Notes under the pieces: generated by a model
Databases searched by the model: none
Told to the model about the DNA's origin: nothing
What the model saw: the letters and a program-made list of their open reading frames with translations, nothing else
Source of the DNA: Acidimicrobiales bacterium
GTDB taxonomy: Bacteria > Actinomycetota > Acidimicrobiia > Acidimicrobiales > SZUA-35
Direction: 5' to 3'
DNA: 64,000 nt
NCBI GenBank assembly: GCA_013003535.1
Contig: JABDIY010000162.1
Span: forward strand, 58,130-122,129
Shown here: positions 32,569 through 34,393 of the stretch, in pieces
How the letters are laid out: each line of letters begins with the position of its first letter
Numbering within the stretch: position 1 is the stretch's first letter
Program-made: the position numbers and the translations under genes

Positions 32569-33216
32569 ATGTCTGACCTGATGTTTCCGGTTTGTCTGAG
32601 GCGCAGTGTCCTCGTTCCCGTCCTGGGATTTGTGCTCGTCGTGGCCAGCGGTTGCGCCAACGACGGCAAGGAGCTAGCTGCGGCCAAGCCGTGGCAAACA
32701 ACAACCACCCGACCACTCCCGCCAACCTCGGCTCCAGACCAGGAAGTTGGCATCGACGGGATGACCTTCACCTCACCAGATTTTGTCGCCGGAGGCGACG
32801 CACCGGTTTCAGCAACCTGTGCCGGCGCCAACTTGCACCCGGGGTTCGAATGGGCCAACCTGCCCGAGGGCACGGCGGAATTGGGCATCACCCTGAGCGA
32901 CCAAACAGATCCGGAGAACCCGCTGCTCCTTTGGCTCATGGCCGGACTGAATCCCGCCGCCGGCGAGCTGCTTCAAGGGGACCTTCCAGGTGGTTCCTTC
33001 GAGACGCTGAACGACTATGGGCAGCCAGGCTGGGGGAATCCTTGTTTGGAGAGTTTTCAGAATGGGCGACGGGACCTGCAATTTCGCCTCTATGCCCTGG
33101 ATCGACCATCGGAGATCGCCCCTGGCGCCCCTGGGAACACGGCCTGGGATGAGTTGGCGGCTCGCTCCGTGGATTCGGCAACCGTCCTCATGCGGATAAC
33201 GAGCAACAGCGGTTAG
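32569..33216 (+). CDS. YbhB/YbcL (PEBP) family lipoprotein
   Basis: Lipobox VASGC, LHPGFEWANLPEGTAELGITLSD, FRLYALD. Confidence 0.85.
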   Translation: MSDLMFPVCLRRSVLVPVLGFVLVVASGCANDGKELAAAKPWQTTTTRPLPPTSAPDQEVGIDGMTFTSPDFVAGGDAPVSATCAGANLHPGFEWANLPEGTAELGITLSDQTDPENPLLLWLMAGLNPAAGELLQGDLPGGSFETLNDYGQPGWGNPCLESFQNGRRDLQFRLYALDRPSEIAPGAPGNTAWDELAARSVDSATVLMRITSNSG

Positions 33217-33249
33217 CCGCAGGCGTCCACACACAGTCTCGAACGACCG

Positions 33250-33465
33250 AACTTCAGTGCGCTCGGCCGGCCAGAGCGATCCGCCTCGCTCGGCCGAGCG
33301 CCCCTGCAGTTTGACGTCTGCGACAGTCCCGGTTCGGCCATGGTGGCGCTGAGACCAAGCGAAGGACTCTCGCACCCATCGAGATGAAACTCGCTCGGCT
33401 CTCTCAAGGAGACCCAGGCCAACCGAACCGGGACTGTACAGACAACCCGGCGGCATCCGGGTCTT
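33250..33465 (-). ncRNA. Structured ncRNA candidate (Ms1/6S-like architecture)
   Basis: Minus-strand TACAGT -10 box at 33472-77. 5' hairpin 33445-33462. Perfect 15-bp stem 33323-37/33423-37 extended by GTCTG/CAGAC. 3' 11-bp hairpin 33259-69/33291-301. No credible ORF. Confidence 0.65.
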
Positions 33466-33583
33466 GTGACTACTGTAAGTGGCGATATCTCACATGGAGA
33501 AGGGGAATTCTCCCTGTTCTGTGGAGTAGTTCCGCCTGTTGCATTGCACCCGTACAGCTTCTGGGCACCGGTAGGGTTTTGCG

Positions 33584-34393
33584 GTGGTAGCCGATGAGTT
33601 CAGCGCCCATAGTGTGCCCGTCAGTCCTGCGGCCACGGTGCTGGTCTTGCGGGATCACCCTGACCTGCAGGTTCTCATGGTCCGCCGAACCAGAACGGTC
33701 GCCTTCGCACCCGATGCCTGGGTCTTTCCCGGCGGTCGGGTGGACGCCGCCGATTTCGATTCGTCGCTCTTTGACGCCTGCGATCAACTGTCCGATGCCG
33801 ACGCTTCTCGCCGACTCGATGTTGACGATGGTGGGTTAGCATGGTGGGTGGCCGCCGCCCGAGAGGTTTTGGAGGAATCCACGATCCTGCTCGGAGAATC
33901 GCCGCGGATGGCTGTGCCGGATCTCGCCGCACAACTCCGGACCGCTCCCGATTCCTTCGCATCGTTGGTGAAACAGCAGGAGGTTCGCTTCGACTGCTCC
34001 CTGGTGCAGGAAGTGGCTCGGTTCATAACCCCTTTGGGTCCACCCCGTCGCTTCGATGCCCGATTCTTCGTCGCTCGAATGCCCGAAGGTCAGGAAGCGA
34101 TGCACGATGACGGCGAGATCGTGGACTTGAAATGGGTGAATCCAATCCAGGCGTTGTCCCACCATGCCAAGGGGACCTTCGGGATGATCTCACCGACAAT
34201 TCGAATGCTCCGGACATTGGAGCGATTCACCTCGGTTGCGCATGTGATGGAGGTGGCCGCTGAATGCCGTCCGTATCAGACCATTCGTGTGGCCGATCCC
34301 GACGGCGAGTACCGAGTGCTCTTGCCGGGAGATGAAGGTTACGACAGCGCCAGTGGCCTCATCGAAAAGGGTCACATTCGCCTCTATCTCTGA
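33584..34393 (+). CDS. NUDIX hydrolase (Nudt19-like)
   Basis: AATVLVLRD, WVFPGGRVD, AAAREVLEES, RRFDARFF. TAGGGT 6 nt upstream. Confidence 0.88.
   Translation: MVADEFSAHSVPVSPAATVLVLRDHPDLQVLMVRRTRTVAFAPDAWVFPGGRVDAADFDSSLFDACDQLSDADASRRLDVDDGGLAWWVAAAREVLEESTILLGESPRMAVPDLAAQLRTAPDSFASLVKQQEVRFDCSLVQEVARFITPLGPPRRFDARFFVARMPEGQEAMHDDGEIVDLKWVNPIQALSHHAKGTFGMISPTIRMLRTLERFTSVAHVMEVAAECRPYQTIRVADPDGEYRVLLPGDEGYDSASGLIEKGHIRLYL

Follow-up and report, generated by a model that had tools for sequence, protein, structure and literature searches.

A probable structured small RNA gene restricted to one genus of marine-sediment Acidimicrobiales

The locus

The DNA analysed here, a window of 64,000 nucleotides, comes from a member of an uncultured genus of Acidimicrobiales that lives in marine sediments. 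Although the class Acidimicrobiia abounds in marine sediment and soil, to our knowledge none of its regulatory RNAs has been characterised so far. Within the window, a gap of 367 nt separates the stop codon of a PEBP gene (33216) from the GTG start codon of a NUDIX gene (33584). The original prediction, which gave the length of this gap closely (as 370 nt), placed in it a structured RNA, unannotated and equipped with a promoter of its own, and read that RNA as a polymerase-binding relative of Ms1 or 6S. The genes and DNA-level features of the region are as follows.

32569-33216, plus strand: PEBP gene (Pfam PBP)
33259-33301, no strand assigned: GC-rich hairpin separating the convergent RNA and PEBP genes, found in this genome (G000) and in G002, in degenerate form in L102, and missing or different in other clades
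33465, minus strand: predicted transcription start (A), inferred from its spacing 7 nt past the -10 box
33472-33477, minus strand: -10 promoter box TACAGT, at a fixed distance from the 5' hairpin P1 in 14/14 homologues with upstream sequence
33500-33515, no strand assigned: palindrome GGGAGAATTCCCC (GGGAAnnTTCCC in relatives), found genus-wide, with its centre some 43 bp ahead of the RNA start
33572-33586, plus strand: NUDIX -10 box TAGGGT (TAGGCT in relatives), 6-7 nt ahead of the GTG throughout the genus
33584-34393, plus strand: NUDIX gene (Pfam NUDIX)

The NUDIX gene is the constant divergent neighbour of the RNA, in every genus member that has the region. The downstream neighbour varies by clade and is convergent with the RNA in five of six clades; PEBP adjoins it in one clade only. 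In the close relative G002, the 8-kb locus comprises dnaE2, NUDIX, the RNA, PEBP, and MgtE. Outside the genus, NUDIX abuts a different gene, with no comparable spacer.

Two cis-acting roles were considered and rejected on this basis. The NUDIX -10 box lies so close to the GTG that the NUDIX mRNA is evidently leaderless, which excludes the folded region as its leader; moreover, NUDIX orthologues elsewhere lack the element. A cis-regulatory leader or riboswitch for the downstream gene is at odds with the clade-to-clade change of that gene and its convergent orientation, the exception being clade B, discussed below. A role for the NUDIX protein itself in controlling the RNA, in the manner of NrtR, was also considered. 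Searches of Pfam, NCBIfam, and PDB sequences detected no winged-helix domain in the protein; they show a NUDIX hydrolase alone, most similar to 3qsj.

A Y-shaped fold

The minus strand of 33250-33477 folds to -128.9 kcal/mol, compared with -93.8 +/- 5.4 for 200 shuffled sequences (z -6.5; no shuffle as good). The plus strand also folds well, to -111.4 kcal/mol (z -5.5). Positions 33323-33337 are the perfect reverse complement of 33423-33437, forming a helix of 15 bp, and a 5-bp extension pairs 33316-20 with 33439-43. Both of these, together with a 5' hairpin whose 6-bp core occupies 33445-33462, lie exactly where they had been predicted.

Homologues were assembled from 10 genomes of the genus (this one included) and 5 metagenome contigs. 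Minimum-energy folds of the 15 sequences share one common architecture, a Y shape: the 5' hairpin P1; the P2 rod; and a junction bearing P3 and the P4-P5 arm. Its elements, from the 5' end of the RNA and all on the minus strand, are as follows.

33444-33463: P1, the 5' hairpin GACCCGG / CCGGGUU with loop AUGCCG (33451-33456), invariant in 14/15 homologues and deleted in G008
33413-33443: 5' strand of the P2 rod (6 + 16 + 4 + 5 bp), whose outer and inner parts covary
33400-33412: P3, mini-hairpin UCUC-CUUGA-GAGA at the three-way junction, with compensatory changes in 3/3 modelled pairs
33354-33399: P4-P5 arm, consisting of a 10-bp P4, a 5x4 internal loop, and P5, with compensatory changes in 6/9 P4 pairs
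33373-33379: loop of the P5 hairpin UCUCG-AUGGGUG-CGAGA, identical together with the P5 stem in 15/15 homologues
33316-33353: 3' strand of the P2 rod, with 33316 as the 3' limit of conservation

The P2 rod is about 31 bp long and ends in a tight three-way junction. The inner P2 pairs form in every clade through unrelated sequences (GGCGCCGAU/GUCGGUGCC, GACGACAGC/GUUGGCGUC, and GGUGCCACC/GGUGGCUCC); consensus folding missed them because the alignment is poor there. Since inner P2 is paired in every clade, the junction is closed. In G000, no unpaired nucleotide at all separates P2, P3, and P4, and the largest internal loop measures 5x4 nt. Thus, what had been described as roughly 85 nt of weaker pairing within the long helix turns out to be a well-defined, covarying three-way junction.

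Covariation and strand

Covariation was evaluated in a model-based alignment of the 15 sequences, covering 44 pairs and 651 pair cells. Standard pairs occupy 95.2% of the cells, and 16 of the 44 pairs have changed on both sides in a compensatory manner. The observed covariation score was reached by none of 500 shuffles, and pairing falls to 28-50% in a control in which partners are slid by 1-3 columns.

The same cells discriminate between strands. They include 69 G-U but only 8 A-C combinations, an asymmetry that identifies the minus strand as the RNA strand and so answers the question of strand that the original prediction had raised. Pairing likewise stands at 95.2% for the modelled strand versus 85.9% for its complement, and the modelled strand (minus in the window) is the more stable by 8-21 kcal/mol in every homologue. 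With the fold energy (z -6.5), the covariation in syntenic relatives (16/44 pairs with compensatory changes), and a conserved -10 box, the predicted structured RNA with its own promoter is borne out.

Variation is not evenly spread. P4, P3, and the ends of P2 covary, whereas the middle of P2, CAGUCCCGG/CCGGGACUG, is invariant in 15/15 homologues except for transitions that leave G-U wobble pairs. Both invariant apical loops start with AUG (AUGGGUG and AUGCCG), and each is closed by a G-C pair. Compared with the relative in metatranscriptome X23, divergence is about 3% in the RNA core, about 12% in the coding part of PEBP, and more than 24% in the spacer.

One homologue departs from the common plan. 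In G008 (L047:5855-5880), P1 and the outer 5' strand of P2 are missing, as about 24 nt flanked by short GACCC-like repeats have been deleted. The absence of P1 there indicates that not all parts are indispensable; contig L047 has low coverage, so the deletion may be an assembly artefact.

Distribution

The RNA is present once in its own 4.0-Mb genome. The search of that genome revealed no second copy, and the element is not among the repeat families of the window, so the MITE-like repeat entertained at the outset is not what lies here. DNA and covariance-model searches covered the 11 species genomes that GTDB places in this genus and found one copy each in 10 of them. The eleventh, G009, lacks the RNA; this genome is 85% complete and lacks the NUDIX gene as well, so the RNA region is probably unassembled there. 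G009 also contains a 21/22-nt match to the P2 3' strand (ACCGGGACUGUCGCAGAC) inside an ABC-transporter ATPase gene (G009:C172:5190-5211, L019), which probably arose by chance (E 0.008 per genome). The five further sequences came from metagenome contigs scanned with a two-block pattern.

Beyond the genus, the covariance model found no matches in the other 13 genera of the family (88 family genomes searched), nor in 400 further genomes of the order, from 215 other genera (401 order genomes searched). Searches with filters off, directed beside the NUDIX orthologues of other genera, likewise gave no matches; 11 other genera have the gene without the element. Exact two-block scans, run on metagenomes and on every species genome, gave genus members and chance matches only.

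The RNA also falls outside known families. A cmscan of the 64-kb window against all 4227 Rfam families gave no match at gathering thresholds. At E <= 10, positions 33150-33650 (500 nt) gave chance matches only (mir-341 and EBV sisRNA), with no 6S among them. The Rfam 6S model matched 0/81 genomes of the order, with nothing above the cut-off in the genus and a negative genome-wide result for G000. The more cautious half of the original prediction, a new motif RNA, therefore holds: no Rfam family matches. No prior description of the RNA was found in the literature.

Promoter, ends, and a candidate operator

The TACAGT box on the minus strand, another element of the original prediction, is indeed present. 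Among homologues it varies as TAGAGT, TACAGT, or TAACGT (TAnnGT), and from its position transcription is predicted to start at A33465. Upstream of the box, a GTG-N10-CAC repeat is conserved, and an E. coli-type -35 box was not detected. By-eye comparison with consensus sequences gave no convincing match to LexA, RecA-independent, heat-shock-type, or sigma-H/E-type promoter motifs.

The palindrome at 33500-33515 lies between the divergent RNA and NUDIX promoters and is probably a regulator-binding site common to both. Neither the palindrome nor the GTG-N10-CAC repeat was found upstream of NUDIX in other genera. A search for a regulon by promoter motifs showed the palindrome, the repeat, and the extended -10 motif each to be unique in the genome. 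At 33496-33515, the palindrome overlaps a second 6-bp inverted repeat, GGAGAA-N6-TTCTCC, which a terminator scan flags on the plus strand.

At the other end, conservation stops at 33316, and the sequence downstream is unrelated between clades. No U-tract terminator was found; the hairpin at 33259-33301 lacks a U tract on either strand. This hairpin had been proposed as the 3' end of the RNA. It does exist in the sequence, but outside the conserved element, being confined to the clade of G000 and G002, where it probably serves as a clade-specific two-way terminator for the RNA and PEBP. The conserved core thus amounts to about 150 nt (33316-33465), and the transcript to about 205 nt if counted to the hairpin at 33259. 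The start, the end, and the transcribed strand given here are predictions drawn from comparison among homologues.

Transcription

Two metatranscriptomes contain near-identical relatives: X23 (marine sediment) and X27 (marine, rRNA-depleted). Across the 8-kb locus of G002, just two metatranscriptome pieces match, and both fall on the RNA: one contig of 426 nt, and 94 nt of another that is 257 nt long. One end of the X23 contig lies at 33459, within the RNA and 6 nt from its predicted start; contigs from DNA runs continue through the promoter into NUDIX. The other end of the X23 contig, at 33028, extends into the 3' end of PEBP and coincides with a strain-variation break in a DNA run, so it is uninformative about the RNA 3' end.

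Contig depths of 3.7 and 2.3 are low; the contigs are directionless, the libraries are unsuited to small RNAs, and the depths pool relatives. With the same pooling, the depth of the RNA resembles that of mRNA contigs, exceeds that of the undetected neighbouring genes, and falls far below that of tmRNA-like contigs (about 1000). Pooling of related organisms also confounds the comparison of abundance with tmRNA and RNase P RNA. Together, the contigs support transcription of the RNA, not high abundance.

The MAG G002 contains two full-length tmRNA matches, at G002:C5:1266244-1266617 and G002:C3:2817-3188 (102.7 and 95.6 bits), reflecting either a duplication or contamination (4% reported for this genome).

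Clade B and coding potential

Reading frames that open at the AUG of the P5 loop encode products of 12-59 aa; both lengths and frames vary, and a 1-nt indel in this frame separates G000 from G002. Clade B (G007 and G008) is different. In G008, the P5-loop AUG opens a frame of 301 aa with a good signal peptide, MGARRSRLGSRSLTRVGTVAALLLALLVVSPRADA, and the same gene occurs in G007. The gene for this secreted protein of about 300 aa is located at L047:5924-6829 in G008 and in L042 of G007, downstream of the RNA homologue in each. Because the frame opens at the P5-loop AUG, the 3' half of the RNA rod supplies the coding sequence for the n-region of the signal peptide. An alternative UUG start lies seven codons later, behind GGAG.

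None of the 9 other genus genomes encodes the secreted protein, which is sporadic in the family (about 30% identity). Its distant homologues carry signal peptides of the usual short kind and have their own ribosome-binding sites, without an RNA-type leader. In the NUDIX tree, clades A, B, and C-F form an unresolved basal trichotomy, so that one gain and one loss of the secreted-protein gene are equally parsimonious. A secondary fusion is favoured, given the sporadic occurrence of the protein and the continuing selection on the fold elsewhere. In clade B, then, the element doubles as, or descends from, an mRNA 5' region; it offers a small natural example of an sRNA gene overlapping the 5' end of an mRNA.

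In the long-read MAG G007, the same stretch (L042, G007:C18:113366-113954) shows the NUDIX gene split into two frames and several frameshifts in the secreted-protein gene. These look like assembly errors rather than pseudogenes.

Weighing the alternatives

RNAs that bind RNA polymerase are lineage-specific in Actinobacteria. The 6S RNA binds the sigma-A/sigma-70 holoenzyme and templates product RNAs. A long hairpin with a large single-stranded central bubble, in 6S a mimic of an open promoter, characterises both 6S and Ms1, and both reach very high abundance, especially in stationary phase. The original prediction saw such an RNA here: the lineage's own analogue of 6S, Ms1, or CoRP, sequestering core or holoenzyme. 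The niche appears unfilled, in that the 6S model has no match among 81 order genomes; a restricted distribution has precedent in CoRP, confined to one genus (PMC11077062); and the rod, the terminal hairpins, and the A start recall Ms1 (PMC4191392). Yet the central bubble is absent from the folds of all 15 homologues, which is why a mimic of an open promoter like 6S or Ms1 is rejected here: no internal loop exceeds 5x4 nt, the junction is fully stacked, and binding by Ms1 needs its bubble (PMC4191392). Nor is there a model match at E <= 10, or the synteny of Ms1 (PMC9130861). Depth is mRNA-like (3.7) against about 1000 for tmRNA-like contigs, a weak comparison since relatives pool, and the RNA is limited to one genus. 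Binding of RNA polymerase by this RNA is unlikely, and the Ms1/6S-like reading as originally framed is very improbable.

An orphaned 5' leader, complete with the start codon of the secreted-protein gene still attached in G007 and G008, would make the element here a decaying remnant or a cis leader. The 301-aa frame of G008 and its counterpart in G007 fit that account, and with clade B in an unresolved basal trichotomy, a gene present in the ancestor and lost once costs no more steps than a single gain. Against it, the protein is missing from the rest of the genus and patchy in the family, its distant homologues lack such a leader, the AUG frames are not conserved (12-59 aa, with the indel between G000 and G002), and relatives without the gene not only still transcribe the RNA but also keep its promoter and, by compensatory changes, its fold, though their flanks cannot be aligned. 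The leader account is accordingly improbable, if less so than the polymerase analogue. A small protein starting at the same AUG (MGAR...) would explain why that codon and the next three are invariant and why frames of 12-59 aa follow in all homologues; but length and frame vary with single-base indels between close relatives, no ribosome-binding sequence lies 5-10 nt upstream, the AUG sits within a stable hairpin, and substitutions track base pairing rather than codons, so that this reading is scarcely credible. No better placed is an element of the plus strand, whether a NUDIX 5' leader or riboswitch or a structured PEBP 3' UTR. The plus strand does fold well (z -5.5), and among the directionless contigs from RNA runs one reaches the PEBP 3' end; the G-U to A-C ratio of 69:8 and the pairing of 95.2% on the minus versus 85.9% on the plus strand, however, point the other way, NUDIX is leaderless with element-free orthologues in 11 other genera, and PEBP adjoins in a single clade. 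Finally, the long, nearly perfect inverted repeats at its ends (about 25 bp, enclosing some 85 nt), other palindromic repeat families in the genome, and a downstream region rearranged between clades would suit a domesticated or decaying miniature inverted-repeat element, or a DNA-level palindrome, with no RNA function. That reading is extremely unlikely: the sequence is single-copy in this genome and every relative, it is syntenic, its promoter is conserved, and its compensatory changes with many G-U pairs point to selection on one RNA strand.

What the RNA may do

The locus is very probably a real, new, genus-restricted structured sRNA gene. It displays the general marks of an independent one: its promoter is conserved, its fold covaries in a strand-specific way, no reading frame is kept across homologues, and unstranded contigs support its transcription. 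The fuller explanation, a structured sRNA gene at 33316-33465 on the minus strand that is controlled by a regulator and acts in trans through invariant loops and an invariant helix, is favoured with moderate confidence.

According to this explanation, a factor binding the GGGAAnnTTCCC palindrome at about -43 would control transcription of the RNA, which would then act in trans. Its putative working surfaces are the P5 stem, the CAGUCCCGG/CCGGGACUG stretch of P2, and the two apical loops, each opening with AUG; they are proposed because these elements never vary while adjacent helices covary freely. The invariant elements may dock a partner sequence-specifically, be it a protein or, by pairing with the loops, another RNA. 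There is a slight lean toward a protein, because seed pairing alone poorly explains invariant double-stranded sequence. In a duplex test of the RNA against the 5' end of the NUDIX mRNA, energies were no better than those of shuffles.

A more specific proposal is speculative and improbable: a genus-specific docking or sequestering RNA, switched on through the GGGAAnnTTCCC regulator, whose CAGUCCCGG/CCGGGACUG segment and AUG loops would hold RNA polymerase or a translation-initiation component that recognises loops resembling start codons. If this is true with polymerase as the partner, the RNA would be a bubble-less analogue of 6S, Ms1, or CoRP.

Neither 6S nor Ms1 is recognisable in Acidimicrobiales, and this locus does not supply the lineage's missing RNA polymerase-binding RNA. 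What it does supply is a well-supported new RNA family, with 15 sequences, strong covariation, a defined promoter, a candidate operator, and some evidence of expression. The invariant elements could serve directly as bait.

Comparison with known RNAs

The 6S RNA (Rfam RF00013) belongs to a similar size class and shares the overall rod shape. The differences are substantial: the present RNA has no covariance-model match to 6S, no central bubble for product RNAs, a distribution limited to one genus, and an extra 5' hairpin that sits outside the rod.

The small 6C RNA (Rfam RF01066), found phylum-wide, belongs with similar trans-acting sRNAs of actinobacteria whose conserved apical loops are displayed on stable hairpins; its loops are C-rich and pair with G-rich ribosome-binding sites. 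Both RNAs present invariant loops on covarying stems, have their own promoter, and need no Hfq-type features. Here, however, the loops are AUGCCG and AUGGGUG, and there is in addition a 31-bp rod with an invariant double-stranded segment.

Ms1 (MTS2823 / scr3559), which binds the RNA polymerase core in Actinomycetia, is an actinobacterial RNA with a free-standing gene, its own promoter, an A start, and a rod with short end hairpins (PMC4191392), all of which resemble the present case. It forms a hairpin of about 300 nt with two short hairpins near its ends and a conserved internal bubble needed for polymerase binding (PMC4191392). Instead of that length and central bubble, the RNA described here has a 150-nt core and a closed three-way junction; only its 5' hairpin is conserved, the 3' hairpin being clade-specific. 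Ms1 lies between the genes for an oxidoreductase and a HAD-IB hydrolase / phosphoserine phosphatase (PMC9130861), whereas the neighbours here are NUDIX (conserved) and PEBP (variable). Ms1 is also widespread, in contrast to an RNA of one genus.

CoRP of Corynebacterium is a 516-nt, tRNA-flanked RNA that binds RNA polymerase experimentally and occurs in one genus only (PMC11077062). Its size, its tRNA flanks, and its demonstrated polymerase binding have no counterpart here. The likeness lies elsewhere: both are genus-restricted structured RNAs of a kind that homology and synteny searches miss (PMC11077062).
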